This document shows positions 4,309-24,804 of a stretch of DNA of 64,000 bases, in pieces. Under the pieces are notes generated by a model. The model did not search any database. It saw only the letters and a list, made by a program, of their open reading frames with translations, and was not told where the DNA came from. Position 1 is the stretch's first letter; each line of letters opens with the position of its first letter. The translations under genes and the position numbers were made by a program. This DNA is from an uncultured Planctomycetia bacterium (GTDB lineage Bacteria > Omnitrophota > Gorgyraeia > Duberdicusellales > 4484-171). Location of the stretch: NCBI GenBank assembly GCA_964483625.1, contig CAZABB010000001.1, forward strand, positions 3,222-67,221, read 5' to 3'.

Positions 4309-4312
4309 CGTA

Positions 4313-5359
4313 CTAAAACCAATTGCAGTGCAGGCACGGCTGAGGAGGACGACCGCTCCTCATCCGAATCCTCCAATCGATAAATCGCTCATTATTCCAT
4401 ATGCGCAAAGGATGCTCCGCGAAGATGTTCCCGAAAAACATATTATGCAATACGCAGCAGGGAAGGACAAATCCTTTCGATGTGATCGACATTTCATGCC
4501 AGGGCTGATAACAGCCCGTCCACCGCTGCGGCTGATTGAGTTTCGGCAGGGTGAGTTTTATGCCGTATTTTTCCGCGGCCTGCTCTGTCTCTCGAAAACG
4601 GGAACGGATCTCTGTTTTCTCTCCCGCCGGCAGGGTGCGTAGCGCATGTTCCGCCGTGGAAATGCCCGTTTCATACACATACTGTATATCCTGAACCCCG
4701 ACTTCGGATATCCCCAACCTGCGGGCAAGCTCTACCAACGCCGGTAATTCATGTATATTATTCCTCATCACAATTGAACGCAGACTCAGCCGAATGGAAC
4801 TTTGGCGTTCTTTCTTCAGTCGGATCATACATTCGATATTCCCCAGCAGCACACCAAATTTCACTCCCGCACGGATACTCTCCACGGTCGCGGCGGTTGC
4901 TCCGTCAATGGAGAAGAAAATCCGGTCAACTCCCGATGAAATCAGCCTCGACGATACGTCATTGGTCAACAGCATCCCGTTGGTGAAAAGAGCGACATGC
5001 AGTTTTCTCTTTTTTGCGTAATGGATCATTTTAAAAATATCCTTATGCAGTAAAGGTTCTCCCATGCCCAGCAGGGTAACGGCGTAAAGAAAAGGCATGG
5101 TATCGACTATTTTCTGAAAATGCCCGAAATCCATTTCGCTCAACCCGTCTTTCTTTATCTCCGGAGCAAACCGGGGACACATCCTACAGTTCAGATTGCA
5201 TTGATCGGTCACCCCGATGACGGCAGAGAAAGGGAAACGGGGAGACCGGGGAATTACGACCATCTGCACGGCATATAAAAACAAATGCGCGGCGCGGCGC
5301 AACGTAAGGTTTTGTAACATATATTTTATGGCAAAAATGATCCGGTTTTTTATCTTCAT
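4313..5359 (-). CDS. radical SAM enzyme with SPASM domain
   Basis: IGVTDQCNLNCRMC and GMGEPLL motifs. C-terminal SPASM region reads CYQPWHE..PCC..FGNIFAEHPLRIW...CLHC. Confidence 0.85.
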   Translation of the reverse strand: MKIKNRIIFAIKYMLQNLTLRRAAHLFLYAVQMVVIPRSPRFPFSAVIGVTDQCNLNCRMCPRFAPEIKKDGLSEMDFGHFQKIVDTMPFLYAVTLLGMGEPLLHKDIFKMIHYAKKRKLHVALFTNGMLLTNDVSSRLISSGVDRIFFSIDGATAATVESIRAGVKFGVLLGNIECMIRLKKERQSSIRLSLRSIVMRNNIHELPALVELARRLGISEVGVQDIQYVYETGISTAEHALRTLPAGEKTEIRSRFRETEQAAEKYGIKLTLPKLNQPQRWTGCYQPWHEMSITSKGFVLPCCVLHNMFFGNIFAEHPLRIWNNERFIDWRIRMRSGRPPQPCLHCNWF

Positions 5360-5456
5360 TACGGGAGACTATTCATCGCCAAAATCGCAATTCACCAATA
5401 CACACAAGGGAAAAGATTAACGTGCCGTATACGTTTCTTCCGACATAACGGAAAAT

Positions 5457-6425
5457 TCACGTCGTCGAAGCCGCCGTCTTCATCCGTTCCATCCTTTTCA
5501 GGGTCAGAGGGGGAACAAATCCGAATACCTTTGCCAACCGTTCTATTATCCTCACGGGTATCCTTACCAGTGCCGGGGGGATATGTACGATAAACGGCTT
5601 TTTGCGTAACGATTCCGCTAACAACGAAATCATTTCATTCAACGAATATGACTTTTTATCGCGTATTGCATACGTTTCGTTCCGATACCCCAAGGGCGCC
5701 GCCGAATGAATCGGGAACGGCGGGGAACTTCTATTCTCCCCAGGAGAAAAAACAGAATCGCGCGACGGGCATACGTCCCACTCCCAGGTCCGGGAAGCAT
5801 CGTTTTCAGTCTCTCTGTGGATAAGCGCGAGGGTCGCATCCACCAGATTATGCACGTCCAGAGCGGTAATCTTTCTGGTGCCGTCCCCGATGACAGGAAC
5901 GATACCGAGACGAATAAAGGAAGCCAGCTTCTTCAGTTCTTTATCCGGATTCTGCCAGTCATACACTAACGGAGGACGCACAATGACGTAAGGAACGCCG
6001 GATTTTTTGACGATCAGCTCAGATTCATATTTACTTCTTCCGTACGCCGATTCTCTATATTCGACGGCGGCAAGAGAAGAAAAATGGATAAAAGTTCCGA
6101 TCCGGCCGGCGTATTCTTTACACGCTTCAATAAGGTTCTTCGTTCCTTCTACGTTTACCTTTCTGTATTGTGCGTCGTATGACGACGAGACGGCGTTTAT
6201 CGTACCTATCGCCGCCAGGTGAACCACAATATCGATACCGGCCGCGATATGCCGCAACGTTTCCGGTTCACGTATGTCACCATACCACCGCCCGGCCTGA
6301 TCCGGCAGACCGGCGGTATCACTCGTTCTTCTTATCAGACACCGCACACGATGACCTTTTGCGGCCAACTCTCTCGTCACGTATCTGCCAATAAAACCCG
6401 TAGCGCCCGTTATGAGTATATGCAT
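5457..6425 (-). CDS. NAD(P)-dependent epimerase/dehydratase (atypical SDR)
   Basis: N-terminal ITGATGFIGRYV Rossmann motif and a YGRSK (YxxxK) catalytic motif. Confidence 0.8.
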   Translation of the reverse strand: MHILITGATGFIGRYVTRELAAKGHRVRCLIRRTSDTAGLPDQAGRWYGDIREPETLRHIAAGIDIVVHLAAIGTINAVSSSYDAQYRKVNVEGTKNLIEACKEYAGRIGTFIHFSSLAAVEYRESAYGRSKYESELIVKKSGVPYVIVRPPLVYDWQNPDKELKKLASFIRLGIVPVIGDGTRKITALDVHNLVDATLALIHRETENDASRTWEWDVCPSRDSVFSPGENRSSPPFPIHSAAPLGYRNETYAIRDKKSYSLNEMISLLAESLRKKPFIVHIPPALVRIPVRIIERLAKVFGFVPPLTLKRMERMKTAASTT

Positions 6426-6468
6426 TTCACATTATCTTTGGGAAAACGGAATATCCAAAATATTAGCT

Positions 6469-7515
6469 CTATTTACCGGCTCCGTCAAGATTCACCAAAA
6501 AATCTTTAATCACCCGGGCGATAACCCGATGCGCCTGCGGTCCAAAATGCCCGGTTTCTCTAAATGTCAGCCCTTCTTTTCGGGCCGCCTGAATGTGCGG
6601 CCGTACGAACACGCACGGCACATTCCTGCGTTGCCAGTAGACAGAGAATGCTTTTTCATATTTCAGCGTTTCCTCCGGGACATCTTCGAGAAATATATCG
6701 CTCAAGTATACAAAAACCGGAACCGCGTTCATGTCTCTTACCGTCCTGACGATTTCCTCGAGAATCGCATTGGTCGCTTTTTCTTCTTCCGAAATATCAT
6801 TCATTCGATGCGACAGCTTACAGACACACAGAGTTATCACATCGATAATCTTTGGTTTCCACCATTCGTTCTTCAGCATCGCTTCCGGCGGGAGAACCGG
6901 TGAATGTTCCTTCCTGAGCCGACCGTTCATCAATCTGAATCTTGGTTTCGCGTAATCCCGGAAGTACAGCATATTACGCACCATATCGACTTTCATAAAT
7001 CCCAGGATGACAATATCCGGTTTATATTTCACTCCTTCTTCCTGAAGATAGACCAGCATCTGGTCATGCCCGTATCCGTGTACGCCGAAATTCAGAACTT
7101 CGCTGGAGGGAATCATGCGCTGCAGATAGAAAGAAAACGTCTCCTCATCACTCACCTCTTCGCCGAACGTATACGAATCCCCGAGGATTAGAATCCTCAG
7201 CGTGCCCCGCGGTTTATCGTAGGCATACTCGCGGTTTCCTCTCAGCCCGCGCGAGTTTGAATTAAGAACCTCGCGGTTAAAATAAAGCATATCGTCCAAA
7301 CCGGCCTTCAAAGCCCATCCCCGTGTGGGGTGATATACGTCGAAGACATAGAAAATTTCAATTCCGTCTTCTTGATGGCGCCGTACCCACTTTATTCTCC
7401 AGGAAGCGCTACATTCATCCTGCAAAAATGATTCGTTCCTCAATATCAGACGGGATGAAATTTCAAAAAACAGGAAAAGCCCGATCACATAATACACATA
7501 CCGGTATTTTTTCAT
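6469..7515 (-). CDS. SGNH/GDSL-family hydrolase (possible glycan O-acyl esterase or transferase), N-terminal membrane anchor
   Basis: Hydrophobic N-terminus (YYVIGLFLFFEI), GDSL block I (ILILGDSYTFG), block II Gly, and a C-terminal TGHFGPQAH (DxxH-like) motif. Confidence 0.65.
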   Translation of the reverse strand: MKKYRYVYYVIGLFLFFEISSRLILRNESFLQDECSASWRIKWVRRHQEDGIEIFYVFDVYHPTRGWALKAGLDDMLYFNREVLNSNSRGLRGNREYAYDKPRGTLRILILGDSYTFGEEVSDEETFSFYLQRMIPSSEVLNFGVHGYGHDQMLVYLQEEGVKYKPDIVILGFMKVDMVRNMLYFRDYAKPRFRLMNGRLRKEHSPVLPPEAMLKNEWWKPKIIDVITLCVCKLSHRMNDISEEEKATNAILEEIVRTVRDMNAVPVFVYLSDIFLEDVPEETLKYEKAFSVYWQRRNVPCVFVRPHIQAARKEGLTFRETGHFGPQAHRVIARVIKDFLVNLDGAGK

Positions 7516-7548
7516 AAGCTTTCCGTCTCTTCCGTTAAGTGAACGAAG

Positions 7549-8373
7549 CTAGGTAAACGCGGCGCGGCAAAAAGACAGGCTCGCCCTGATATTACGGGCG
7601 ATCTTTTTTTTATTCCCGACGCCTAAAGCCCGAGAACTCATCTCGAGCGTAACGATCCCCGGATAACGATCCCGCTTCAGGCGCTTTAAAAACCGCTCTA
7701 ACGGCAATCGGCCTTCGGTTATCAGGCTGTGTTCTCTTCCGTTATAATTGGAAAGATGAACATGCGCTATGCGTTTCTTCAGGCATTCGTACGCTTCCAG
7801 GAGGTCTATTCCCCATGTGCCTACGTGAGTTGTATCGAACGCCACGTGATCAAACCTTTTGAGCTGATCGAGGTTATTGAACCGATACGGGTTCAGGCGG
7901 ACATCCCCCCAACGCATATCGGGCAGGTTTTCCAGGACGATGGTAACCGGGGTATTATCCTGGAAAGATTTCAATTCGCGCGTTAACCATCGAGCATACC
8001 GCTTCTGCCCACCGAAAGGAAAATGGAGCAATATGTCGGCAAGCATCTCGGTTGTTCCCACCCGTACCAAGCGCAACGGCGGATGAATCACTGTGACGCG
8101 GGCGCCGACCGCCTCGGCAAGGGCGATCGAATGCTTTACCCTTTCAATTTCATCCACGGGACAGCCGGAGATATATCCGTTAAAAGGGCTATGGATGCTC
8201 AGGATAGGAACTCCGTACTCATCCCGAAGACGATTCAAGTAGCCCGCCGAATACGCCGACCGATACCGGTTGGCCAATATTTCCAGACCGTCAAACCCGA
8301 CATTGTGTGCGAGCTCAAACGCATATCTGAGAGGATAAGGATATACTGAACCCGCTGATAAAGCGAACATCAT
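7549..8373 (-). CDS. sugar phosphate isomerase/epimerase (xylose-isomerase-like TIM barrel; IolE/IolI-like)
   Basis: IAHVHLSNYNG metal-site motif, a VIHPP motif and TIM-barrel-like periodicity, as in the AP endonuclease 2 / xylose isomerase-like family. Confidence 0.65.
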   Translation of the reverse strand: MMFALSAGSVYPYPLRYAFELAHNVGFDGLEILANRYRSAYSAGYLNRLRDEYGVPILSIHSPFNGYISGCPVDEIERVKHSIALAEAVGARVTVIHPPLRLVRVGTTEMLADILLHFPFGGQKRYARWLTRELKSFQDNTPVTIVLENLPDMRWGDVRLNPYRFNNLDQLKRFDHVAFDTTHVGTWGIDLLEAYECLKKRIAHVHLSNYNGREHSLITEGRLPLERFLKRLKRDRYPGIVTLEMSSRALGVGNKKKIARNIRASLSFCRAAFT

Positions 8374-8385
8374 ACATCTCTTTAT

Positions 8386-9477
8386 TTATGTATCGATCCG
8401 GCCGGCGACAAAATCGTCAACCATCCGTTTCGCCTGAAAATCAGAATATTGCACCGGGGGACGCTTCATCGCGTACGCCGAAAGAGAAGTTAAAACCCCG
8501 CCTCGCCTCCTGTCCAGAGCCAATTTGCACCCCCGGATCACATCGATAACAACCCCGGCACTGTTGGGAGAATCTTCCACCGAAAGTTTCACATCGAGTT
8601 CTATCGGCAGCCCCCCGAATCCCCGTCCTTTCAGAGTGATGAAACAAACTTTGTTGTCTTTTAACCAAGATACATAGTCGGTAGGACTTATATGGACATC
8701 TTCTTCCGCGAACGGACTGTCCGATTGCGATTTTACTGATTCGGCTTTTGATATCTTCTTCAGCTTGAGCCTTTTAAAATCGAGCATATTAAGAAAATCG
8801 GTATTCCCTCCGACATTCAGCTGATATGTGCTGTCAACCTTTACGCCTCTTTCGCTGAATAACTTCACTAATGTTCTATGGAGTACCGTCGCGCCTAACT
8901 GAGATTTGATATCATCACCCACCAGAGGAAGGTTCTTATCTTTAAATTTCTCCGCCCATTGCGAATCGGAAGCTATAAAAACGGGGATATTGTTCACAAA
9001 GGCGGTATGAGAATCCAGACAGCATTGCGCATAGAATTTCGTCGCTTGCTCGGCACCAACGGGGAGATAATTCAACAGCATATCGGCTTTACTTTCCTTT
9101 AAAAGCGCAACGATATCACAGGACGGCGCGGCCGAAATCAAGAACGTTTTTTCCGAAGGGTAGTTCTTCATCTGGTCGTTCACTCCATCCCCGACGACAC
9201 CCATATTCACTTTTACGCCGCGGGCGGGTATATCGTTCTGAAAGATGGTACCGCAGTTTGGTCTTTCAAAGATGGCACGCGCGATATCTTTTCCCACTTT
9301 TCGTTCATCGACATCAATCGCGGCGACCACTTCTATATCTTCCGGGGTATATCCGCCCATACTGTAGGACGTCAGCCCCATATCGCTGTTCCTCCTGTTT
9401 CTATAGTATTCTATTCCCTGAAGCAAACTGCTGGCACAATTGCCGACACCGACAATGGCAATCTTTATCCTGCTCAT
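8386..9477 (-). CDS. ino1: myo-inositol-1-phosphate (inositol-3-phosphate) synthase
   Basis: KIAIVGVGNCASSL Rossmann motif plus blocks conserved in bacterial/archaeal MIPS (VNNIPVFIASD..., LVGDDIKSQLGAT, QLNVGGNTDFLN, SPNSAGVVIDVIRGCKLALDR). The start is trimmed to MSRIKIAIVG at 9477; the longest ORF extends to 9513. Confidence 0.8.
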   Translation of the reverse strand: MSRIKIAIVGVGNCASSLLQGIEYYRNRRNSDMGLTSYSMGGYTPEDIEVVAAIDVDERKVGKDIARAIFERPNCGTIFQNDIPARGVKVNMGVVGDGVNDQMKNYPSEKTFLISAAPSCDIVALLKESKADMLLNYLPVGAEQATKFYAQCCLDSHTAFVNNIPVFIASDSQWAEKFKDKNLPLVGDDIKSQLGATVLHRTLVKLFSERGVKVDSTYQLNVGGNTDFLNMLDFKRLKLKKISKAESVKSQSDSPFAEEDVHISPTDYVSWLKDNKVCFITLKGRGFGGLPIELDVKLSVEDSPNSAGVVIDVIRGCKLALDRRRGGVLTSLSAYAMKRPPVQYSDFQAKRMVDDFVAGRIDT

Positions 9478-10220
9478 CCGGCTTCCTCTTTCTTCCGGCT
9501 GTCTTTTACGCATACAAACAGAAAATTACGGGCGAACAGCGCGGGAAGAATTTTGTACAGTCCGGAATAATATATCCCTTCCCCTATTATTCTCAATTTT
9601 TTCCAGGGTTCCTCGCTTATCCGTTGCGGAAAATAATACTTCCGGGAAATACAGACCAGACCGGTTTTCTCAACCAGCTTCTCCAGGACATTCCGGGAAA
9701 AGACACGGATATGTTCCGAAAACAATGCATCCCGCTTGTGATATACGTCCGTTATATCTTTAAATGCCCCGCAGAGAAAATAAAACCTGTTCACTATATT
9801 CAGCATATTGGGAACCGAGATGACCAGAATGCCGTTGTCTTTCACAACCCGTCTACACTCGCCCAGGAGGGATTCCGGATCAAGCGCATGTTCCAATACA
9901 TCCATAATTAAAATAGCATCGAAAGACTTGTCGGTAAAGGGGATTCCCCCGTCAATATCGCCCAAAACAACTTTAACACCTTTGGCCGAAGCCTCCTTGA
10001 GCGCTTTCTCGCACATATCAAGGCCTATGACCGTATGGGCGGCGGTTAAATCTTCGCTCATACTGCCGCGGCCGCACCCCATATCCAGGATAAGAAAATT
10101 ATTCCGCTGTATTTTCTTTTTCACTAACTCTCGTCTCCATTTCTCATAAGGCCCCAGTGCCGTTTCCTGCCAAACTGCGAGACGATGCCAGTAATCTGTG
10201 GAATATTTTTTTATATCCAT
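9474..10220 (-). CDS. class I SAM-dependent methyltransferase
   Basis: Motif I LDMGCGRGSMSE and motif II/III region (VLGDID...ILIMDVLEH). Confidence 0.8.
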   Translation of the reverse strand: MDIKKYSTDYWHRLAVWQETALGPYEKWRRELVKKKIQRNNFLILDMGCGRGSMSEDLTAAHTVIGLDMCEKALKEASAKGVKVVLGDIDGGIPFTDKSFDAILIMDVLEHALDPESLLGECRRVVKDNGILVISVPNMLNIVNRFYFLCGAFKDITDVYHKRDALFSEHIRVFSRNVLEKLVEKTGLVCISRKYYFPQRISEEPWKKLRIIGEGIYYSGLYKILPALFARNFLFVCVKDSRKKEEAG

Positions 10221-10226
10221 ACGTTT

Positions 10227-11249
10227 CTATCCGCCGCTCATAGGGGCGGATTCCTGACCCCGGTAAACCGGCCGGGAAGGCAGTCTCTGTTTGAAAACAA
10301 TTTCGTAGAGAACACCCGTCTTAAATATCAATCTGGTAACAAGCACGACGAAAAATTCACCAAGAGCACGGAAAGGAAGCTGGAATTCTTCCCGGTGTTT
10401 TACCATGGACGCGGCGACGATCAGGAAGGGAGACAGGATAAAAAATACCGTCTTTCTGATCCCTGCGGGAACATTCACATCAAAATGCCTGTTGAAAAAA
10501 TACATCTGCGCATACCCTCTTCCATAAATAAAGTACTGTTTCGCCAGGGCGGCAAACGCAGCCCGGTGATAATGCTTCACGGTGATACCGGGAATGTAGA
10601 GCAGTTTTCTCCCCTCACGGCAAAGAGATAAATGCAGACTAAGATCATCACAATTTATTAAACGTTCATCAAATCTGAATTTTTTGAATATATCTTTCTT
10701 ATAGGAAATATTGCAGCCGCGAAGGTGTACCGCCTCAAAAGGCTTATCTTCCCGCCTGAAATACCGGCGCAGAAATGAGGAATCCGCCGGAGTATTTTCA
10801 ATAATATCATTGTCGTCCCATATGATCTGACTGACACGGTGGAAAAAATTATTTTTTAAAGCGGGGATCGCTTTCCCCCCTATCGCCATGACGCGGGGAT
10901 ACATATTGTGGAATTTCAAAATATTCTCGACCCACATCTTATCGCAAACGCAATCATCGTCGGTTAACGCGATCACATCTCCCGCACAATACCGCAGACC
11001 CGTATTCCTTGCCGTGGCGATATTCCTCCGTCTGCGTTCCGTGACGCATCGAAACGTCGGGAAACGGACCCGGTATCCGGCAACGACCTCCGGAGTGTTA
11101 TCCGTCGAACCATTATCCACAACAATAACCTCTTCGGGCATTCTGGTCTGAACAAGCAGACTGTCCAGACAGTTTTTCAAAAGCTCCGCTCTATTGAGCG
11201 TGACGACCAGCACCGAGATTTTCGGGGGAGAACATGTCGCATTTCTCAT
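10227..11249 (-). CDS. GT2 family glycosyltransferase with C-terminal transmembrane anchor
   Basis: ISVLVVTLNRAELL..VIVVDNGSTDNT..ALTDDDC (GT-A DxD region). The C-terminal ~100 aa are hydrophobic. Confidence 0.85.
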   Translation of the reverse strand: MRNATCSPPKISVLVVTLNRAELLKNCLDSLLVQTRMPEEVIVVDNGSTDNTPEVVAGYRVRFPTFRCVTERRRRNIATARNTGLRYCAGDVIALTDDDCVCDKMWVENILKFHNMYPRVMAIGGKAIPALKNNFFHRVSQIIWDDNDIIENTPADSSFLRRYFRREDKPFEAVHLRGCNISYKKDIFKKFRFDERLINCDDLSLHLSLCREGRKLLYIPGITVKHYHRAAFAALAKQYFIYGRGYAQMYFFNRHFDVNVPAGIRKTVFFILSPFLIVAASMVKHREEFQLPFRALGEFFVVLVTRLIFKTGVLYEIVFKQRLPSRPVYRGQESAPMSGG

Positions 11250-12783
11250 AAAGTTCTACGAAGAGACCATCGAATTCCCTGCTTTCTAATTTCCTGTATT
11301 TTTTTCCTAACCATTCCTTCACTGCCAGAGAGTTCGGTTCCAGAACACCCGTTCTGAACCAGGAAGAAGAAATCAACCATATCCTTTCGAAATTATACTT
11401 TTCGATATCCCGGCTTAAATCAATTACTCCCGGCGGGACTATCCCATCCTGCCTTTCCCGCTCCTCCCACGAACGTATCTCCTTACGCCAATATGTGTCC
11501 TGCTCGGAATAGAATGTGAAATAATACGAACCTACGGGATCACGACAGCCAAAATAGTACCATAAAGAGGGCACACTGCTCGGATGCGTGTGCGCGATGA
11601 TATCATTTTTTTCCAGTTTCCTCTTTAGATATCCCGCCACGGAAACAAAATCCTTCTTAGGACACACTCCCACCGAATGCCGATTGCCGTATCCCAAAGG
11701 CATAAAGCCCGTATAATAATTAGACAGAGATACCACCGTCAACAGAACGACTCCGGCGCCGAGAAGAAACCTCACCCCGTATGCGCCTATACCGGTCACT
11801 CCCGAAGCGACGATAATATAATAAAACGGGGAAACCGCCATATTTTGCCGGTCAAGGTATATGGGTATCCATTGGGAGAAAAAAAAAGAGGCAAAAACAG
11901 GTGCAAATAAAAATACAAGCAGAAACGACACGTTTTGAGCGCGGCGGCGGCAGTAGAAAATACCGCCGATAAACAACAGAGTACATAAAATCGATCCCGG
12001 AAGATAGGCGTGGTTCGGAGCGTTGTACCCCAACGTGAAATTTTCAAAAGTAGCTAAAAGAGAACGAGGAACAGGCGTAGACAGCCAAAACGCATCTTTT
12101 ACCCAGTTGAGGTGGCTGAAAGCCTCCTTAAACCAGGGACTGAAGACAGGGAGAATCACAAGATAACTTATCAACCATTTCCTGACCGGTACTTTTTCTC
12201 TTCGAAAAAAAAGGAAAGGTATACCGGCCAAAATCACCCAGAAGGTAAAATAAGACACATAAAGGCCGAGAATAGCCGAGAGCGCAAAAGAAATCCAAAG
12301 CCACGATTTATCTTCTTTTACGGCGCGTACAAAAAAATACACTATTGCCATTATGAAACAAGGCAACAAAGTGTATTCTCTCACCTCCTGCGCATACCAG
12401 ATATGAAGGGGAGAAATAGCCAGGAGAAACGCGCTGATCAATCCCGTCTTTCTGTCGACAAACAGACTCGCCAATGTATATATCCAGAATATGGAGATCA
12501 CGCCGAACAGCACCGAAAGGGAACGCAGAGCAGCTTCACCTCTGCCAAATACTCTGATCCAGAGGCTCAGTAACGCATAATATAAAGGAGGCTGGGGACT
12601 TGATGAAGAATAATTTTCCACGATACGTACACTCACGGCTTCATCATACCAGAGATCATTGGCATCCAATCTATACATCCTCAGAGCCGTTCCGAGGAGG
12701 ATAATGAGAAAGAGGACAATAATGACCTTTTGATTTCGCATATGCAGGAGAAGTGTCATAAGGATATGCCGGTTTTCATGCAA
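11191..12783 (-). CDS. GT-C fold glycosyltransferase, ArnT/PMT-like (GT39/GT83-type; polyprenyl-phosphate-sugar dependent)
   Basis: About 12 predicted TM helices. N-terminal loop-1 DE motif region (ALRMYRLDANDLWYDEAVS) is typical of the dolichyl-P-mannose protein mannosyltransferase / ArnT family. Confidence 0.7.
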   Translation of the reverse strand: MHENRHILMTLLLHMRNQKVIIVLFLIILLGTALRMYRLDANDLWYDEAVSVRIVENYSSSSPQPPLYYALLSLWIRVFGRGEAALRSLSVLFGVISIFWIYTLASLFVDRKTGLISAFLLAISPLHIWYAQEVREYTLLPCFIMAIVYFFVRAVKEDKSWLWISFALSAILGLYVSYFTFWVILAGIPFLFFRREKVPVRKWLISYLVILPVFSPWFKEAFSHLNWVKDAFWLSTPVPRSLLATFENFTLGYNAPNHAYLPGSILCTLLFIGGIFYCRRRAQNVSFLLVFLFAPVFASFFFSQWIPIYLDRQNMAVSPFYYIIVASGVTGIGAYGVRFLLGAGVVLLTVVSLSNYYTGFMPLGYGNRHSVGVCPKKDFVSVAGYLKRKLEKNDIIAHTHPSSVPSLWYYFGCRDPVGSYYFTFYSEQDTYWRKEIRSWEERERQDGIVPPGVIDLSRDIEKYNFERIWLISSSWFRTGVLEPNSLAVKEWLGKKYRKLESREFDGLFVELYEKCDMFSPENLGAGRHAQ

Positions 12784-12834
12784 AACGTCTTCTCTGTAAA
12801 AATAAATGATCCATGGAAATACCTGCCGTTAAGA

Positions 12835-13854
12835 TTAAACCGGGGGTTTATCTTGCTCGACCTCCCATATATAGGGGTTTTTCTCCCGTATGTAGAAGTC
12901 GCATAAGCCCATTATTCTTGCATACGCCTCAAGAATCACGGCACCCGCCATCCAGAAAAAATAATTGAAGCCGCCTTCCAAATTGCGCACAACCAGGCTG
13001 AAAATGCGCAGATTGCTCAGGCTGGAAACGGCATACCCCGCTGTTTTTTTCAAATGAAGATGCCCGGTATAAACTCTCCTCCTCTGAGCAAGATAGGCCT
13101 TTACGGTACGAGGCCCCCTGTTGTAAACAACCGCTTCAGGAACGTAACATAAACGATACCCTTTCCGTACAACCAATGCCTCGATCGCCGCCTCATCGAC
13201 CGCCGTGTCGCCCGGTATTCTCGTTACCACCGCCTTTCTAAAAGCAACCAGCTCTCCCAATTTGGGATATTTTAACGCTAATTTATGATGCAGCAACCAC
13301 AGCCGATGCACGGCAAATCCCAGGAAATTCTCGGGAGTATCCCGGGGAACGGAACGGCCGCCGACCATTCCTGTATCGGGGATCGTAAAGGGCTTGAGAA
13401 GATTCTTAATCGTGTCTTTACACGGCACGGTGTCGCCGCTCTCTAGAATACAGATATCCGCAGAGGTCTGTTGGAGAAAATAATTTACCGCCGAGGCTTT
13501 TCCCAACCGTTCTTTTTGAACGAAAAGCCGTATTCGTCTATCGCGTTCTTTAAATCTCTTTACAACGTCTTCGGTATTGTCGGTACATCCGCTGGCTATA
13601 ACCACTATTTCATGAATAGTAAAACATCCCGGTTCCTGAGCGATTAATCCCTCTAATAACCGACTAATGTTGGCCTGCTCATTATAAACGGGTATCCCGA
13701 TACTGCAGGTAAGAATCCTTGTTTCCGTATGCGTAGCATCCATGGGCGAAACGAAACAAATCATTGTTAAAAGAAATTCTCCCTCCCTATGAAATATACG
13801 TATTATCTCATAAAAATTACTCAATATGAAGCGTTTCATCGGAATACCAAACAC
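12835..13854 (-). CDS. GT2 family glycosyltransferase
   Basis: IGIPVYNEQANISRLL...VVIASGCTDNTEDVV...ILESGDTV, GT-A fold motifs. The start is possibly the internal Met at ~13743. Confidence 0.8.
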   Translation of the reverse strand: MFGIPMKRFILSNFYEIIRIFHREGEFLLTMICFVSPMDATHTETRILTCSIGIPVYNEQANISRLLEGLIAQEPGCFTIHEIVVIASGCTDNTEDVVKRFKERDRRIRLFVQKERLGKASAVNYFLQQTSADICILESGDTVPCKDTIKNLLKPFTIPDTGMVGGRSVPRDTPENFLGFAVHRLWLLHHKLALKYPKLGELVAFRKAVVTRIPGDTAVDEAAIEALVVRKGYRLCYVPEAVVYNRGPRTVKAYLAQRRRVYTGHLHLKKTAGYAVSSLSNLRIFSLVVRNLEGGFNYFFWMAGAVILEAYARIMGLCDFYIREKNPYIWEVEQDKPPV

Positions 13855-14061
13855 CGAAACAAAAGGCCGGTCTCCCTCCGCATGAGGCTTTCCACAAATA
13901 TTCTTTTTAAAATAATTCTTTTCCTTTTTGAATCTTTTCCGACAGGGATATGTTTTATCTTTACTTGTCTCTCACATTTTGGCATAATTACTTTTACGCA
14001 TAGGAAAAGTTTTTCCCTTATCCGACAGACACCTGCCTCACTCCTGAGGCTTACGGAAAGA
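13855..14061. promoter_or_regulatory. AT-rich divergent intergenic region between oppositely oriented operons (probable divergent promoters)
   Basis: A 207-bp non-coding gap between the minus-strand GT2 gene and the plus-strand B12-rSAM gene. A GGAAAG Shine-Dalgarno-like element lies 7 nt before the ATG at 14062. No specific -35/-10 elements are called. Confidence 0.25.
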
Positions 14062-15429
14062 ATGAATATAAAAGTAGCGTTGATTAATCCGACAATCAAA
14101 GAACTTCAAGCAAGCGAAGTACCCTTGCACTTGGGGTATATCGCGGGACACCTGGAACAAAACGGTATCGAAGTAATAATCATAGACCAGGCGGCCGGGG
14201 ATGATGTGGAGAGAGAAATCGATTCTTATCGTCCCGACATAATCGGCATCAGCAGTATGTCGGCCATGATAGGCGAAGCCTATAGAATAGCGGACATGTG
14301 CCGTAACAGAGGAATCCTCACCGTCATGGGAGGAGAACATGCCAGCGCGTTGCCGGAAGAAGCACAGGAACACGCCGATGTAGTTGTGGCAGGGGAAGGA
14401 GAGATAGCTATGCTGGATATCGTCAGAAAAAAAATCACATCCGGCATCATATCCGGTCCCCAGCTGGAAGATATAGACGATCTGCCGTTATATCCCTGGC
14501 ATCTTATCAACCAGACATACTATCTCAATTTATCAAACGAAACGAAACTGGCCACCCTTGCTTTTCTCGGCTCCCGTCTCTCTTCGGCCAAAACGAGTTC
14601 ATTTCTTACCAGCCGGGGATGTCCCTTTCACTGTACCTTCTGCCATAACAGTCTGAGACAGGTTCATTTCAGATTCCATAGCGCCGAGAGGATAGTAGAA
14701 GAGATGAAACGCCTCAGGGTAGATTACGGCGTTGAAGCCATAGCGTTTTTAGACGAGAATTTTCTGTTGAATAAGACAAGGCTTGAGAAAATTTGCCGTA
14801 CCATACGAAAAGAAAAGCTCAGTGTCCTATGGAGCTGTGCCAGTTCGGCTCATTTCGTCGACGCACAATCTGTCCGGATGATCCGGGATGCCGGATGCCG
14901 GCAGGTATCCTTCGGCGTAGAAAGCGGCTCGCAAAGAATTTTGGACATTCTGAATAAGTCCGTTACGGTAGAACAAAATAAAAAGGCAATCAAAATCTGC
15001 CGGGAAGCCGGATTGATCGTGCACGGTTCATTCATGCTGGGAAATCCCACGGAGACCGTCGAAGATGTAAAATTAACCCAAAAGTTCATTCTCGAGACCG
15101 ACATCGAAAGCTACCGTATCAATATCACCACGCCCTATCCCGGCACGAAACTCTGGGAACTCTACCACGAACAAATTCCCCGGCCTATTGACTGGCATCG
15201 TTTCGAAGCAAGCACCAATATCGAGACATACCCCTATACCCCATTCAGCAGGGAAGAACTCAAACGCCTGTTCTTTGAAACTTCGCTGATAAAGCCGGCG
15301 ATATATAAACGGGACTGGAAAATGGCGCTGCGTTATCCAAAAGAAACGATTTCCTGGGGTATCCGGCATCCGTTGACAGCAACGAGAATTATCGCAGGGA
15401 AATATAATATGAGAAGCATGCAAGACTGA
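14062..15429 (+). CDS. cobalamin-binding (class B) radical SAM enzyme
   Basis: MNIKVALINP..B12-binding Rossmann region, SRGCPFHCTFC. The start is placed at the ATG after the GGAAAG SD. The in-frame upstream ORF from 13789 is probably not translated. Confidence 0.85.
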   Translation: MNIKVALINPTIKELQASEVPLHLGYIAGHLEQNGIEVIIIDQAAGDDVEREIDSYRPDIIGISSMSAMIGEAYRIADMCRNRGILTVMGGEHASALPEEAQEHADVVVAGEGEIAMLDIVRKKITSGIISGPQLEDIDDLPLYPWHLINQTYYLNLSNETKLATLAFLGSRLSSAKTSSFLTSRGCPFHCTFCHNSLRQVHFRFHSAERIVEEMKRLRVDYGVEAIAFLDENFLLNKTRLEKICRTIRKEKLSVLWSCASSAHFVDAQSVRMIRDAGCRQVSFGVESGSQRILDILNKSVTVEQNKKAIKICREAGLIVHGSFMLGNPTETVEDVKLTQKFILETDIESYRINITTPYPGTKLWELYHEQIPRPIDWHRFEASTNIETYPYTPFSREELKRLFFETSLIKPAIYKRDWKMALRYPKETISWGIRHPLTATRIIAGKYNMRSMQD

Positions 15430-15481
15430 AACTGTATTTCAAATAGTCGTTATATATAGAAGGAAAAATTTACCGTACATC

Positions 15482-17230
15482 ATGACTGTAAAAGTAGCAT
15501 TGATATCCATCATCACCGGGAAATATTTTTTCGAAAGCGTAGGAAAACTCAGAAGCCTTGCCCCCCGGCAGCTGAAACTCTACGCGCTCGGCGACGAATA
15601 CATCCGGCGCAACGTCACCATAGAAATAAAAGACTTTATCTCCGAAGACCTCTTTTACAGCGATAAAATATATTATCACGCCTTATGGAACATCACCCGT
15701 CAGATATATGAAATGAAGCCCGATATCGTGGGTTTTTCCTGTTATTTATGGAATATCCGCCACATCCTTTCCCTGACCCGGAATCTGAAAAATATACTGC
15801 CCGGTGTCACGACCATACTGGGCGGCCCGGAAGTCTCTTCACAACCATTTTCCCGGGAGATTATGGAAAAAAACGACGGCATAGATATTATCGTCCGGGG
15901 AGAAGGAGAACAAACGTTCCGCGAACTTGTCTTATCCTGTCTCAACCACACTCCGAAAGATACGATCCCCGGCCTTACCCTGCGCAAAGAAAACGAAATT
16001 CTCGTAACTCCCGACCGAACCGACCGCGTCGACATCAACCATATCCCTTCGGTTTATGAAACAGAAATAACTCAAAGCTATTGTCCGGGAGAGATCGCCC
16101 AGCTGGAAACCGTACGGGGATGCCCCTACCGCTGCCATTTCTGCCTCTGGCCGGGAAAATCAAGCAGTATGCTTACCCGATCCCGGATAGAACACGAATT
16201 GCGCCTGATCAAAAAAGCCGGCTTTCAGGAAGTATATATTTTTGATTCGATTCTGGGATACGCAAGGCAGAGGACGAAAGAAATCCTTCAGCTCCTTTTG
16301 GATATGCAACTTGGGATGCGTTACACATTCTATCTTGACTTGAATTATATCGACGAAGATAGCATCCTGCTCTTAAAAAAAGGGAAGGATACTTTGCATC
16401 TCGCTCCCCTCGGCGTCCAGACTCTGCATGAAGAAGCTCTCAAAATAAATAATATATTTTTCAACAGACACACATTTGAAAAAACACTAAGCATGCTCAA
16501 CGCAAACAAGATCCCCTACAGTGCCAATCTCATTATGGGACTTCCCGGAGATACCCACGCAACGTTCAAACAGTCTTTCAATACACTGTACGGCCTGACC
16601 TGCGATATACACATCCGGCCCCTCTTGGTCAATCCGGGCACACATCTTTTCGAACACGCATCACAATATAAAATCAAACATGTAGGAATGGACGAATGCC
16701 ACAGAGAACTTTCCAATAAATCATACAGCTATGAAGATATGAATAGAACGGTACGCTTTATGATCGGATACCTCGTATTGAAGTACGGCTATGAAACGGC
16801 ACGGCCGTTAAGGGAATGGGTTCTTCTCCTGGACCGTTCTCTACGTTTTGCTTCGCGTCATTTTGAAATCAGCCCGGCAGATCTTATCGATTCTTTCGGT
16901 GAATATCTGGAAAAAGAAATGCCGGTATACTTTTCTCCTACTACCGACAGAATGAATATGTATTCTGTTTCACGTCTTCACCTCCCGCTTTTTATCCGGT
17001 TTTTTCGCACCCTGCCGCGGCGGGGCGGCCGGATACTGCATCGTATTATTCTGTATATTTTTCTCGCGACAGAATATATCACGTGGCGATACAACATCCA
17101 TCTGAGGAACATAATTTACTTCTATCCAAAACTGCAGTGGTATTCGCTCAAAATGAAGGTTGCCGGCAGGTTGGCATCGTATAGGCGTATTTTCCTAGGG
17201 AACAACGACGTGTCGATGAGGGAAAAATGA
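15482..17230 (+). CDS. cobalamin-binding (class B) radical SAM enzyme, tandem paralog A
   Basis: VRGCPYRCHFC motif and N-terminal B12-like domain. Residues ~24-250 are identical to those of the next gene. Confidence 0.85.
   Translation: MTVKVALISIITGKYFFESVGKLRSLAPRQLKLYALGDEYIRRNVTIEIKDFISEDLFYSDKIYYHALWNITRQIYEMKPDIVGFSCYLWNIRHILSLTRNLKNILPGVTTILGGPEVSSQPFSREIMEKNDGIDIIVRGEGEQTFRELVLSCLNHTPKDTIPGLTLRKENEILVTPDRTDRVDINHIPSVYETEITQSYCPGEIAQLETVRGCPYRCHFCLWPGKSSSMLTRSRIEHELRLIKKAGFQEVYIFDSILGYARQRTKEILQLLLDMQLGMRYTFYLDLNYIDEDSILLLKKGKDTLHLAPLGVQTLHEEALKINNIFFNRHTFEKTLSMLNANKIPYSANLIMGLPGDTHATFKQSFNTLYGLTCDIHIRPLLVNPGTHLFEHASQYKIKHVGMDECHRELSNKSYSYEDMNRTVRFMIGYLVLKYGYETARPLREWVLLLDRSLRFASRHFEISPADLIDSFGEYLEKEMPVYFSPTTDRMNMYSVSRLHLPLFIRFFRTLPRRGGRILHRIILYIFLATEYITWRYNIHLRNIIYFYPKLQWYSLKMKVAGRLASYRRIFLGNNDVSMREK
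15548..16233. repeat. 686-bp tract 100% identical to 17287..17972 (copy 1 of a gene-conversion tract inside tandem B12-rSAM paralogs)
   Basis: Direct comparison of the two regions, offset 1739 nt. Six-frame ORFs in all frames are duplicated identically (15742..16038 = 17481..17777, etc.). Confidence 0.9.
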
Positions 17231-18966
17231 ATATATCATTGATATCCATTATTTTCGGAAAAACTTTTTTTGACAGTACGAACTTTCTCAGAAGCCTTGC
17301 CCCCCGGCAGCTGAAACTCTACGCGCTCGGCGACGAATACATCCGGCGCAACGTCACCATAGAAATAAAAGACTTTATCTCCGAAGACCTCTTTTACAGC
17401 GATAAAATATATTATCACGCCTTATGGAACATCACCCGTCAGATATATGAAATGAAGCCCGATATCGTGGGTTTTTCCTGTTATTTATGGAATATCCGCC
17501 ACATCCTTTCCCTGACCCGGAATCTGAAAAATATACTGCCCGGTGTCACGACCATACTGGGCGGCCCGGAAGTCTCTTCACAACCATTTTCCCGGGAGAT
17601 TATGGAAAAAAACGACGGCATAGATATTATCGTCCGGGGAGAAGGAGAACAAACGTTCCGCGAACTTGTCTTATCCTGTCTCAACCACACTCCGAAAGAT
17701 ACGATCCCCGGCCTTACCCTGCGCAAAGAAAACGAAATTCTCGTAACTCCCGACCGAACCGACCGCGTCGACATCAACCATATCCCTTCGGTTTATGAAA
17801 CAGAAATAACTCAAAGCTATTGTCCGGGAGAGATCGCCCAGCTGGAAACCGTACGGGGATGCCCCTACCGCTGCCATTTCTGCCTCTGGCCGGGAAAATC
17901 AAGCAGTATGCTTACCCGATCCCGGATAGAACACGAATTGCGCCTGATCAAAAAAGCCGGCTTTCAGGAAGTGTGTATCTACGATTCGATTCTGGGATAC
18001 ACAAGACAACGGGCGAAGGAGATCATTCAATTGATTTTGGATCTCAAACTGGGGCTTAAGTTTAATTTCTTTCTCGATCTTAACAACATCGACGAATCCA
18101 TTGTAAAACTTGCAAAAAAGCACGAAAACATCCTACGCCCTCTTCCCCTAGGGGTGCAGACGTTACACGACGAATCATTGAAGAATACTAATATTTTCTT
18201 CAACACTGAGCGGTTTGCAAAAGGGATAGAGACTATCGATAAACACCATATGACATATGACGGGATAGACCTGCTTATCGGCCTACCAGGCGACCGCCAG
18301 GCCACCTTTAAACACTCCTTGAATCAACTGTATGCTCTTTCTCCCCGGATACATATCCGGCATCTCTTCGTCAATCCGGGGACTCATTTCTTCGAAAACC
18401 TCGAGAAATACGGGATGGCCCGTTCAGATATCGATCAATGTCACAGGATGCTGTATAATTATTCCTACAGTTACGAAAACGTCCATAAAAGCATACGCCT
18501 TCTCGTGGGATACCTCGTGTTAAAATATGGATACGAACCCGTACTTCCGTTGCGCAAATGGCTGCCGCTTTTGCGCCGCTCATTGTCATTTACCCTGCGG
18601 CATTTTTCGGTAAGCCCCGCCGATCTCTTTGATTTGTTCGGTGAATATCTGGAGAAGGAAATCCCGGCGTATTTTTCTCCCACCACCGACAGGATGAATA
18701 TGTATTCGGCCCCGCGGCTTCATCTTCCGCTTTTTCTCCGGTTCTTTCGCACCCTGCCGCTGCGGCGTAATAGAGGAGTATACCGCGAAATCTTATATCT
18801 TATTACTGCGGCAGAGTACGCCAGATGGAGGTGGAACATCCACCTGAGGAATATGATCTATTTATATCCTCGGCTACAACGCTATTCGTTATTTACAATC
18901 TTTTCCGGAACATGTGCACGATTTTTGAAATTATTCATAAGAAATAGCCGGGCAGATATCCGTTGA
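17227..18966 (+). CDS. cobalamin-binding (class B) radical SAM enzyme, tandem paralog B
   Basis: VRGCPYRCHFC. The start ATG overlaps the stop of paralog A (ATGA), suggesting translational coupling. The C-terminal half is ~55-60% identical to paralog A. Confidence 0.85.
   Translation: MNISLISIIFGKTFFDSTNFLRSLAPRQLKLYALGDEYIRRNVTIEIKDFISEDLFYSDKIYYHALWNITRQIYEMKPDIVGFSCYLWNIRHILSLTRNLKNILPGVTTILGGPEVSSQPFSREIMEKNDGIDIIVRGEGEQTFRELVLSCLNHTPKDTIPGLTLRKENEILVTPDRTDRVDINHIPSVYETEITQSYCPGEIAQLETVRGCPYRCHFCLWPGKSSSMLTRSRIEHELRLIKKAGFQEVCIYDSILGYTRQRAKEIIQLILDLKLGLKFNFFLDLNNIDESIVKLAKKHENILRPLPLGVQTLHDESLKNTNIFFNTERFAKGIETIDKHHMTYDGIDLLIGLPGDRQATFKHSLNQLYALSPRIHIRHLFVNPGTHFFENLEKYGMARSDIDQCHRMLYNYSYSYENVHKSIRLLVGYLVLKYGYEPVLPLRKWLPLLRRSLSFTLRHFSVSPADLFDLFGEYLEKEIPAYFSPTTDRMNMYSAPRLHLPLFLRFFRTLPLRRNRGVYREILYLITAAEYARWRWNIHLRNMIYLYPRLQRYSLFTIFSGTCARFLKLFIRNSRADIR
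17287..17972. repeat. 686-bp tract identical to 15548..16233 (copy 2)
   Basis: As above. Flanking sequence on both sides is clearly diverged. Confidence 0.9.
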
Positions 18967-19022
18967 CCAGAGGACATTCAATCCATGGCGGCGGGATTTT
19001 TCATTCTACCGGAATATCAGAC

Positions 19023-19838
19023 ATGGATTACGCTGTAGAAATAAGTCATTTGACCAAGACCTTTAGACCAAATAAAACATTTTATCGTTTTCTCACTCAT
19101 CCATTTCGTGTCGAAAAACCCATAACCGCTCTTCACGATATCTCACTCCGGATCAAGAAAGGTGAACTACTGACCCTTGTCGGCCCAAATGGCGCGGGAA
19201 AAAGTACGTTGTTAAAAATCCTTTCCTGCCTTATCCTGCCGACCTCGGGAAAAGCCAAAATAGCAGGACACGATGTGGTAAAAAATCCCGGAGAAGTAAA
19301 AATGGCCATAGGTCTGATTTCCGGCGATGAACGAAGTTTCTACTGGCGCCTTACCCTGCGCCAGAATCTTTCTTTCTTTGCCGCCTTATACAACGTCTTC
19401 GGTAATCAAGCAGAAGAAAGGATGAAATATCTTGCGTCTTTTCTCCAATTGACTCCTCACTTGGACCGGCGTTTTCAGGAAACATCCACCGGAATCAGAC
19501 AACGGATGATGATCGCGCGTAGTTTACTCAACAATCCTTCCGTTCTGTTTATGGACGAACCGAATAAAAGTCTGGATATCGCCATAAACAGAGAGCTTTT
19601 CCGGACAATAGAAGAAGAACTGATCAACAAACAGGGGAAAACAATCATCCTGGCCACACATACCCTTTCTGAGATACACACACCTGTGACGAAGATAGCG
19701 ATAATGAAAGAAGGAGAAATAAAAGCATGCGGGACCATCGAAGAGTTAACCCGGTCGTTTAACGTGTCTTCGAAAAATACCGAACATATATATAAAACGG
19801 TGATACAAGATGAATCGTACGGAGACATTCCTACGTAA
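19023..19838 (+). CDS. ABC transporter ATP-binding protein (ABC-2 / Wzt-TagH-like exporter ATPase, no C-terminal carbohydrate-binding domain)
   Basis: Walker A LVGPNGAGKSTLLKIL, signature/Walker B region (..LFMDEPNKSLD). The start is trimmed to MDYAVEISHLTKTF; the longest ORF runs from 18963. Confidence 0.85.
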   Translation: MDYAVEISHLTKTFRPNKTFYRFLTHPFRVEKPITALHDISLRIKKGELLTLVGPNGAGKSTLLKILSCLILPTSGKAKIAGHDVVKNPGEVKMAIGLISGDERSFYWRLTLRQNLSFFAALYNVFGNQAEERMKYLASFLQLTPHLDRRFQETSTGIRQRMMIARSLLNNPSVLFMDEPNKSLDIAINRELFRTIEEELINKQGKTIILATHTLSEIHTPVTKIAIMKEGEIKACGTIEELTRSFNVSSKNTEHIYKTVIQDESYGDIPT

Positions 19839-20634
19839 AGCGTGGGCTTTCATCAAAAAAGATTTTCATATCCAGTCAAGTTACCGTATCTCTTTCCTTT
19901 TCGAATGGTTAGGCATCCTGATCCACGCGGCAACGTTCTATTTTGTGGCAAAGTTGTTCGAACAGAACCTGACGCCTTACCTGAAAGAATACCAGACCGG
20001 ATATTTCCCTTTTGTTCTTATCGGGATAGCCTTTTCCGGATACCTTTCTATTGCCATACGCAGTTTTTCGGGAAATATACGGCGGGAACAAATGATGGGC
20101 ACATTGGAAGCAATGATAACAACCCCCACCCGGCTGCCGATATTGATCGTTTCTCTCTCACTCTGGAACTTCATCTTTACCTCCATCAGCAGTTTTATTT
20201 ATCTGTCCTGCGGCGTACTGTTTTTTGACGTCGATTTAAGCCATATGAACATCGGAGCCACGCTGATTATTCTTCTGCTCACGATCGTCTCATTCAGCTG
20301 TATCGGGATAATTTCCGCTTCGTTTGTGATCGTGCTGAAAAAAGGCGACCCGGTCAGCTGGCTGACGGATACATTCGCTCGATTTTTCGGAGGAGCCCTC
20401 TTTCCCGTAATCATACTCCCGAAGGGATTACGGACGATTTCTTATTTTTTACCGATCACATATTCACTCAAAGCACTGCGCCATTCTCTGCTGCAGGGAT
20501 ATGGATTCAGCATGCTCCGTTTCGAAATCGGGATACTGCTGGCATTCTGTATTATTCTTGGTCCCCTCAGCCTATGGACATTTCGCGGCGCGGTCAGGAA
20601 AGCGAAAAATACGGGAAGCCTGGCCCATTATTGA
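19810..20634 (+). CDS. ABC-2 type transporter permease (Wzm/TagG-like)
   Basis: About 6 TM helices and an N-terminal amphipathic AFIKKDF motif typical of ABC-2 permeases. It overlaps the ATPase gene by 29 nt. Confidence 0.8.
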   Translation: MNRTETFLRKAWAFIKKDFHIQSSYRISFLFEWLGILIHAATFYFVAKLFEQNLTPYLKEYQTGYFPFVLIGIAFSGYLSIAIRSFSGNIRREQMMGTLEAMITTPTRLPILIVSLSLWNFIFTSISSFIYLSCGVLFFDVDLSHMNIGATLIILLLTIVSFSCIGIISASFVIVLKKGDPVSWLTDTFARFFGGALFPVIILPKGLRTISYFLPITYSLKALRHSLLQGYGFSMLRFEIGILLAFCIILGPLSLWTFRGAVRKAKNTGSLAHY

Positions 20635-24797: not shown

Positions 24798-24804
24798 AAC
24801 CCTG

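Follow-up and report, generated by a model that had tools for sequence, protein, structure and literature searches.

Gene organization of the two trios

We analysed a 64,000-nucleotide stretch of contig CAZABB010000001.1 from an uncultured bacterium of the Omnitrophota (hereafter the window), in which a gene for a membrane glycosyltransferase of the GT-C type lies between two genes for family 2 glycosyltransferases (GT2s). A preliminary description had placed this trio at 10227-13854 and had regarded it as a self-contained periplasmic glycosylation unit, the first of two copies. The trio consists of three minus-strand open reading frames (ORFs) running in the same direction, which we call A1 (the downstream GT2), B1 (the GT-C), and C1 (the upstream GT2); the genes of the second site are called A2, B2, and C2.

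10227-11249, minus strand: A1, inverting GT2 of the GT-A fold with a two-helix membrane anchor at the C-terminus (PF00535, AlphaFold2, Foldseek)
11191-12759 (longest ORF to 12783), minus strand: B1, GT-C of the PMT_2 family, ArnT/PMT-like (PF13231, AlphaFold2, Foldseek)
12835-13743 (longest ORF to 13854), minus strand: C1, GT2 of the PcManGT/PgaC-like type (PF00535, phmmer against the PDB)
27803-28837, minus strand: A2, GT2 with three C-terminal transmembrane (TM) segments, downstream of B2 (Pfam, hydropathy)
28841-30622, minus strand: B2, second PMT_2 GT-C, with a VWYDE motif (Pfam, alignment)
30573-31658, minus strand: C2, soluble GT2, upstream of B2 (Pfam, hydropathy)

Pfam assigned A1 and C1 to Glycos_transf_2 (E 5e-33 and 9e-21) and B1 to PMT_2 (PF13231, E 2e-18), which bears out the described order of GT2, GT-C, and GT2. 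The same order of families was found at 27803-31658, where A2, B2, and C2 were assigned to GT2 (E 1e-15), PMT_2 (E 2e-12), and GT2 (E 8e-25), and the recurrence of the arrangement is thus correct. Public gene calls for identical proteins start B1 at M9, giving 522 amino acids, and C1 at M38, giving 302 amino acids. The coordinate 13854 of the described span therefore belongs to a longest ORF, and the likely C1 gene extends only to 13743. A1 and the 3' end of B1 share 59 nucleotides, and a promoter and terminator scan of 5000-14500 gave only background levels. When the order of the 48 window genes was shuffled at random, ignoring operon clumping, two GT-Cs with a GT2 on both sides were obtained with p ~0.0007 for the whole window and ~0.0014 for the cluster only. 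Since double flanking is rare in the shuffles, the arrangement can be taken as genuine, and chance does not account for it in this genome.

The two trios were described as copies of one module, but pairwise alignment did not agree with this. B1 and B2 are reciprocal best matches with only 26% identity. The closest paralog of A1 is the GT2 at 23883 (31% identity, E 9e-33), that of both A2 and C2 is the GT2 at 22972, and C1 and C2 (E 0.7) are unrelated beyond the family level. Of the three gene pairs, only B1 and B2 are each other's best match, and an origin by block duplication was therefore rejected.

B1 is a GT-C glycosyltransferase of the PMT_2 family

B1 scored 67.5 bits against PF13231, a GT39/GT83-like family (curated cut-off, 26.1), and the Pfam scan revealed no match to PF02366 and no MIR domain. 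No relative of B1 in the PDB was detectable by sequence, and a profile search of the PDB with the GT-C alignment returned only a 42-residue TM stretch of AglB. The AlphaFold model of B1, built on 46 homologs, was of high confidence (pLDDT 92.3, pTM 0.92). Its top Foldseek match was ArnT (5EZM, 5F15; E 8e-9, TM-score 0.61), followed by STT3, PglB, AglB, Pmt4, ALG9, DPY19, and AftA, and all significant matches were GT-C enzymes. We are confident that B1 is an ArnT/PMT-like membrane GT-C of the PMT_2 family, in accordance with the identity first given to it. An identity as O-antigen ligase or polymerase was rejected; B1 did not match Wzy_C (PF04932), and neither WaaL nor Wzy was among its structural matches.

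The sequence LWYDEAVS, which had been assigned to the first periplasmic loop, is located in the loop after the first TM helix, and in the model its D and E come directly behind that helix. D39, E40, and R79 (numbering of the 522-residue protein) are invariant in the 46-sequence alignment, and the LW(Y/F)DE motif is common to B1, B2, and 43 homologs; the B2 counterpart of LWYDEAVS is VWYDEASL. The preliminary description counted 12 TM helices, whereas a helix-by-helix reading of the model helices, hydropathy, and loop charge gave 11, with the N-terminus inside and the C-terminus outside. In this topology, which we infer by manual reading, the DE motif, QExR (124-127), ENFxLGYN (239-246), and YxDR (301-304) would all face the periplasm, as proposed earlier for the DE loop, while the RREK and RRRAQN loops would face the cytoplasm. 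The ~11 helices would be followed by a periplasmic alpha/beta domain at the C-terminus. ArnT has 13 TM helices and the yeast protein O-mannosyltransferases (PMTs) have 11. Unlike ArnT, its best structural match, B1 thus reads as an 11-helix protein; it shows only ~13% sequence identity to ArnT, has no match to an ArnT or ArnC equivalog model, and is accompanied by no ArnA/ArnB-type genes. Judged by the behaviour of its family, B1 can reasonably be expected to carry out a periplasmic step dependent on a polyprenyl-phosphate sugar.

B1 was not recognised as a protein O-mannosyltransferase proper (PF02366, GT39), since only PF13231 matched and the MIR domain was not found. Some distant relatives of B1 carry PF02366, and public annotations of its relatives read GT39 or 'mannosyltransferase'. 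B1 could also be a PMT-like protein O-glycosyltransferase that modifies Ser/Thr-rich envelope proteins with a polyprenyl-phosphate hexose made by the enzyme at 38602-39384 (see below), its GT2 neighbours being unrelated to this function. These annotations, the PMT_2 family itself, the presence of Pmt4 and Pmt1/2 among the significant structural matches, and a helix number equal to that of the yeast PMTs are consistent with such a role, and the likeness to GT39 enzymes served by Dpm1/Ppm1 includes the DE motif in loop 1 as well as Dpm1-type genes beside two relatives (L032 and L043). However, B1 lacks PF02366 and the MIR domain, ArnT ranks above all PMTs (TM-score 0.61 versus 0.51 or lower), the context is of polysaccharide type, and the adjoining genes include none for an obvious Ser/Thr-rich target. 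We therefore consider a PMT-like role quite improbable.

The flanking GT2s resemble glycan-building enzymes

The GT2s on either side of B1 had been taken for synthases of its lipid-linked sugar donor, one of them anchored in the membrane at the C-terminus. The anchor was confirmed in A1, whose model contains helices at 263-284 and 292-319 in agreement with hydropathy. Hydropathy also indicated three hydrophobic C-terminal segments in A2 and no clear TM segment in C1 and C2. In phmmer searches of the PDB, the best match of A1 was the chondroitin polymerase K4CP (E 4e-19), with DPMS reached only at E 0.007, and that of C1 was PcManGT (6YV7, E 1e-14), with ArnC reached only at E 0.004; no DPMS or ArnC match was obtained for A2 and C2. 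The best NCBIfam matches of A1 (MftF, EpsD, and HpsE) were all under the cut-offs. The AlphaFold model of A1 (pLDDT 87.7) consists of a GT-A domain, an amphipathic helix, and two C-terminal TM helices, and its nearest Foldseek matches were PcManGT, TarP, AvpGT/PglI, GalNAc-Ts, K4CP, and processive synthases. DPMS, GtrB, and ArnC were not among its top 50 matches. PcManGT, TarP, K4CP, and PglI/AvpGT are the closest solved relatives of A1 by structure and of C1 by sequence, with 15-23% identity. A1 and C1 share with PcManGT-type GT2s the GT-A fold, the DxD motif, and the ED-type catalytic base region. PcManGT, TarP, TarS, SpsA, and K4CP have been grouped as inverting GT2s using nucleotide sugars (PMC12595478).

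The DADxQxPP signature (D.D..Q.PP) was absent from every GT2 of the window except the protein at 38602-39384. A profile of A1 homologs gave 230 bits for the GT2 at 23883, 206 for that at 22972, 137 for C2, and 83 for C1, and only 24 for the 38602 protein. We predict that A1 is a transferase which uses nucleotide sugars to build glycans and is not of the DPMS type. Judged by sequence, A1, C1, A2, and C2 do not appear to be synthases of the DPM1/ArnC/GtrB type, their best matches being glycan-building GT2s, and the role of donor synthase first given to the flanking genes is not borne out. As for the profile families named in the preliminary description, PF13231 was detected, while PF02366 was not, and neither was the DPM1-like type in the flanking GT2s.

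The architecture of GtrB, ArnC, and DPMS, a GT-A domain with an amphipathic helix and C-terminal TM helices, resembles that of A1. It can be argued that A1, and A2 in the second trio, is a divergent polyprenyl-phosphate-sugar synthase dedicated to the adjacent GT-C, which would make the trio self-contained. The overlap of A1 with B1 is in line with this, and the number of GT-Cs in the window, three against a single DPMS-type gene, leaves room for more synthases. On the other hand, A1 and A2 lack the signature, their similarity to DPMS is marginal or not detected, the structural matches of A1 point elsewhere, and within the window A1 is most similar to the GT2 at 23883 and A2 to that at 22972. 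A dedicated synthase within the trio is thus unlikely.

A DPMS-type enzyme is encoded away from the trios

38602-39384, minus strand: DPMS/ArnC/GtrB-type GT2 of 260 amino acids (phmmer against the PDB, signature motif)

All seven PDB phmmer matches of this protein, including ArnC and GtrB, were polyprenyl-phosphate-sugar synthases. The best was PfDPMS (5MLZ, E 8e-20), aligned over residues 16-244, which correspond to the catalytic domain, and VMDADRQHPPE of the protein is aligned with VMDADLQHPPE of DPMS. The best NCBIfam matches were PgfS, AglJ, ArnC, and PpgS, of which none reached an equivalog cut-off, and no TM helix was found in the protein. The window has no other candidate for a polyprenyl-phosphate-sugar synthase, and this protein probably produces the GT-C donor.

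Since the flanking GT2s lack synthase features and the sole DPMS-type gene is located elsewhere, the trio is not a self-contained unit, contrary to the original proposal; a distance of 7-25 kb separates the synthase candidate and the GT-Cs, and no flippase candidate was found inside or adjoining either trio. Three-component periplasmic glycosylation systems, including pentofuranose systems, have been reviewed (PMC11127046). Such a system encoded together as one unit was not found in the window, and a three-component system distributed within the cluster is possible. As in GtrA/GtrB/Gtr* and CsbB/GtcA/YfhO, a GT-C with an acidic loop 1 occurs in a glycan locus with a DPMS/GtrB-type GT2 in the region, and the logic of periplasmic decoration after export would be shared with the three-component systems (PMC11127046). 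Unlike in those systems, the synthase candidate is distant, no flippase was found in the window, the GT-C is flanked by Leloir-type GT2s, three GT-Cs occur with one synthase, and 15 radical S-adenosylmethionine (SAM) genes are present.

Only the B1-A1 adjacency is conserved, within the closest clade

Species-representative genomes were scanned with a profile of 14 close GT-C sequences. This yielded 550 relatives, and neighbourhoods were counted for ~79 loci from the best 80 of them, which belong mostly to Omnitrophota and then to Chloroflexota; the source species is absent from this set, whose best match has 46% identity. The closest named relatives of B1 are annotated as Candidatus Omnitrophota. 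The full trio of GT2, GT-C, and GT2 was seen in none of the ~79 loci. A GT2 was immediately downstream of the GT-C in one locus and immediately upstream in seven, and in two of the latter it was a canonical Dpm1-type enzyme, separated from the GT-C by a 6-nucleotide gap in L032 and immediately upstream of it in L043; Dpm1-type genes were also nearby in L044 and L063. The L032 and L043 synthases are ~240 amino acids long and carry an IIPTYNE...VDDNSPDGT...MDADxSHxP signature. When a donor synthase adjoins this GT-C family, it is thus of the canonical type. In none of the other loci with a readable upstream gene did a C1 counterpart adjoin the GT-C.

The one part of the arrangement that recurs is a GT-C with a TM-anchored GT2 downstream, and this pairing is confined to the closest clade. 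In a related organism (L008/L009), the gene order is exactly that of the window, with identities of 69% for B1, 67% for A1, 68% for a SAM methyltransferase, 73% for inositol-3-phosphate synthase, and 67% for a TIM barrel protein (methyltransferase to TIM barrel at 1487-4153 of L008). In L005/L004, L007, and L010, B1 orthologs of 46-50% identity have an A2-like GT2 running in the same direction behind them, so that pairing of the B1-A1 type is kept at 46-69% GT-C identity. As the sole adjacency kept in these loci, it also speaks for A1 as a dedicated synthase; against this stand a B1 ortholog of 63% identity with no GT2 on either side and the canonical Dpm1 type of the synthases that adjoin relatives.

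It was also considered that the adjacency is mechanistically meaningless and reflects no more than the clumping of glycosyltransferase genes in a hypervariable surface-glycan locus. B1 would then act, like ArnT and independently of A1 and C1, on an unrelated target, for example lipid A or the core. The absence of the full trio from the related loci and the widely varying neighbours agree with this, as does ArnT as the best structural match; a GT9 gene (heptosyltransferase family) lies near the GT-C relative in L092, and capsule and lipopolysaccharide glycosyltransferases are reported to be typical cargo of hypervariable Omnitrophota loci (preprint 10.64898/2026.06.07.730766). However, the double flanking is rare in the shuffles (p ~0.001), B1 and A1 overlap and stay paired over a wide range of GT-C identity, and the block from B1 and A1 through the methyltransferase and inositol-3-phosphate synthase to the TIM barrel is conserved. 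There is only a slim chance that the adjacency is incidental.

The neighbours of other relatives are diverse. A ~400-residue NTP_transf_5 (PF14907) protein directly follows the GT-C, often overlapping it, in L018, L023, L025, L026, L032, L046, L049, and L054, and is also encoded at 11772-12935 of L003; the window contains no homolog. Polysaccharide pyruvyl transferase (L017), Wzy_C (L003), and UbiA (L004) genes were found in other neighbourhoods, and a DegT and a methyltransferase gene accompany GT9 in L092. The UbiA-family gene of L004 (4332-5255) is divergent from a B1 ortholog of 50% identity (5727-7268). UbiA-family enzymes make the polyprenyl-phosphoribose donors of pentofuranose three-component systems (PMC11127046), and some members of the clade may thus use pentofuranose donors. 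Accessory genes like those for ribosomally synthesized and post-translationally modified peptides (YcaO, PqqD, ScmC PF27840, ORFs of 57-58 amino acids, and SPASM radical SAM enzymes) adjoin GT-C orthologs of Omnitrophota in L001/L002 (1-9577) and L003 (2479-8496). A peptide-modification reading was rejected; PqqD, YcaO, and ScmC occur near relatives, but no such genes or precursor-like ORFs are present in the window. Since the neighbours of the relatives are mostly of polysaccharide type, a surface-glycan role is favoured over peptide modification.

B2 scored 47.9 bits against PF13231, above the cut-off. Its best relative in a protein database search, which returned seven distant relatives and not B2 itself, was only 32% identical, and synteny of the second site rests on two loci (L090 and L092). 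Unlike B2, B1 and A1 are present as exact database entries on a 137-kb NCBI contig.

Proposed role of B1 in glycan decoration

Trio 1 is most likely a segment of a long minus-strand operon within a ~40-55 kb surface-glycoconjugate supercluster of Candidatus Omnitrophota. We favour, with a probability of roughly 55%, a reading in which B1 decorates in the periplasm a glycan that is built by the cluster and exported, using a donor from the 38602 enzyme, while A1 and C1 build the acceptor. In this scheme, where we infer the donor, the acceptor, the topology, and the link to 38602, the DPMS-type GT2 would make the polyprenyl-phosphate-sugar donor and the flanking GT2s would not. The donor would then be flipped to the periplasmic face by a putative flippase. 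Membrane-anchored A1 and soluble C1 would act at the cytoplasmic face as nucleotide-sugar-dependent GT-A enzymes on a lipid-linked glycan, which the other GT2 and GT4 enzymes of the cluster would help to assemble and for which an ABC-2 transporter is the candidate exporter. B1 would transfer one sugar from the donor to the acceptor at the periplasmic face by means of the invariant Asp-Glu pair of loop 1. The conserved coupling of B1 with A1 may reflect two consecutive steps on one glycan, a cytoplasmic addition and the subsequent periplasmic decoration. Periplasmic decoration by GT-Cs is an established mechanism for ABC-transporter-dependent O-polysaccharides (PMC11127046).

Several observations weigh against this reading. 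The 38602 gene lies 25 kb away from trio 1 and 7 kb away from trio 2, and of the three GT-Cs its product may serve just one, or it may have quite another function. No GtrA, SMR, or MATE flippase was found among the annotated genes or small ORFs of the window, and neither an initiating phosphoglycosyltransferase nor WaaL or Wzy was detected there. The C-terminal TM hairpin of A1 and its conserved pairing with B1 are moreover reminiscent of GtrB/ArnC.

The surrounding cluster

46694-48412, plus strand: B3, third, divergent PMT_2 GT-C without flanking GT2s (PF13231, E 3e-6)
18963-19838 and 19810-20634, plus strand: ATPase and permease of an ABC-2 exporter (PF00005, PF01061; DrrA/DrrB-like by NCBIfam)
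9474-10220, minus strand: SAM methyltransferase (Pfam, NCBIfam)
8386-9513, minus strand: inositol-3-phosphate synthase (matches the mycothiol INO1 model with E 4e-123 without reaching its cut-off)
7549-8373, minus strand: xylose-isomerase-like TIM barrel (Pfam, NCBIfam)
601-5359, 13789-18966, 20680-21738, 24715-25914, 26706-27806, 31541-33901, and 50345-54208: spans of 15 radical SAM genes (8 of SPASM type, 6 B12-binding, 1 plain), with a SPASM fragment at 163-615
33792-35483, 48678-50342, and 54126-55880: three NodU/TobZ-type carbamoyltransferases
Glycosyltransferases in the whole window: 7 GT2s, one full GT4, another GT4 truncated at the end of the window, and 3 GT-Cs
Further sugar-tailoring genes: two PF01522 deacetylases, a WbuX-like N-acetyl-sugar amidotransferase, an SDR, and two GDSL proteins

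B3 scored 27.8 bits against PF13231 (cut-off, 26.1) and has ten hydrophobic segments; it aligns at the DE motif only via an 11-residue insertion, where the alignment is unreliable. A PF01522 deacetylase (45002-45970) and an ATP-pyrophosphatase/Asn-synthase-like gene precede it in the region 45002-48681. An 89-residue ORF with three hydrophobic segments follows it (48412-48681) and is possibly a small flippase-like protein. The PF01522 deacetylases, which we take to be of the ArnD family, recall ArnC/ArnD/ArnT systems in that one adjoins B3; this ArnD/ArnT-like order, deacetylase and then GT-C, is seen again in L090, where the deacetylase overlaps the GT-C start.

The density of radical SAM genes is extraordinary for a glycan cluster, and none of the ten radical SAM enzymes scanned reached any curated NCBIfam cut-off. 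Of the 48 top-ranked loci (mostly Omnitrophota), 30 have a radical SAM gene at most 7 kb away from the GT-C, compared with 3 of the 31 lower-ranked ones (mostly Chloroflexota). Fusion proteins were observed in related loci: a GT2-radical SAM protein of 681 amino acids (L090, 698-2743), a double B12-radical SAM protein of 973 amino acids (L092, 3157-6078), a protein of ~1450 amino acids with three radical SAM/SPASM units (L003, from 21108 to the end), and an upstream ORF of 1331 amino acids in L035. These fusions suggest that radical SAM enzymes and glycosyltransferases may act on the same substrates. The block of methyltransferase, inositol-3-phosphate synthase, and TIM barrel hints at an inositol-derived component.

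The proximity of radical SAM genes (30/48 versus 3/31), the GT2-radical SAM fusions, and the conserved block of GT-C, GT2, methyltransferase, inositol-3-phosphate synthase, and TIM barrel raise a further, rather doubtful reading, that of an undescribed envelope-glycoconjugate pathway of Omnitrophota. In such a pathway, radical SAM enzymes of the B12-dependent and SPASM types would tailor sugars, perhaps lipid-linked and possibly on an inositol-derived moiety, and on the outer side of the cytoplasmic membrane the GT-Cs would attach the products or modify them further. In a bolder variant, the TM-anchored GT2 may serve the GT-C specifically, as a new type of glycosyltransferase that forms a lipid-phosphate sugar or acts on a lipid-inositol.

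Other genes of the window were also noted. Two tiny single-TM ORFs (35504-35665 and 35677-35895), one of them weakly DUF5989-like, follow the first carbamoyltransferase. A protein of 743 amino acids (55890-58121, minus strand) with ~12 hydrophobic segments had no Pfam match even at E 1 and was missed by the GT-C profile; the cluster may thus have in it a novel enzyme or transporter of polytopic membrane type. A protein of 1105 amino acids (58292-61609, minus strand) contains ~28 tetratricopeptide repeats and one N-terminal hydrophobic segment, and a second tetratricopeptide repeat protein of 583 amino acids is encoded at 61663-63414 on the same strand. The cluster is broken at 39402-44975 by purC, a GTP-dependent phosphoenolpyruvate carboxykinase gene, and a gene for a 723-residue GH5-domain protein, and glycan and radical SAM genes resume at 45002. 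Hopanoid-type hints were limited to weak matches to HpnA, HpnB, and HpnJ, far below their cut-offs, with no cyclase in the window.

Implications

B1 is of a known kind, since PMT_2 GT-Cs are familiar from glycan loci; its radical SAM-rich, inositol-linked, Omnitrophota-specific context is a more unusual feature than the trio. The present results correct the tempting shortcut that a GT2 beside a GT-C makes the lipid-linked donor of that GT-C, and the DADxQxPP signature together with similarity to DPMS, GtrB, and ArnC offers a simple sequence test by which donor synthases can be told from ordinary GT2s. Little is known of the surface chemistry of the Omnitrophota, a group of uncultured nanobacteria, and the wider locus may matter more than the trio. 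The 40-55 kb cluster, with its 3 GT-Cs, 7 GT2s, 15 radical SAM enzymes, 3 carbamoyltransferases, and inositol-phosphate synthase, points to a heavily tailored surface glycan and, if confirmed, would extend the known use of radical SAM chemistry in bacterial glycan biosynthesis.

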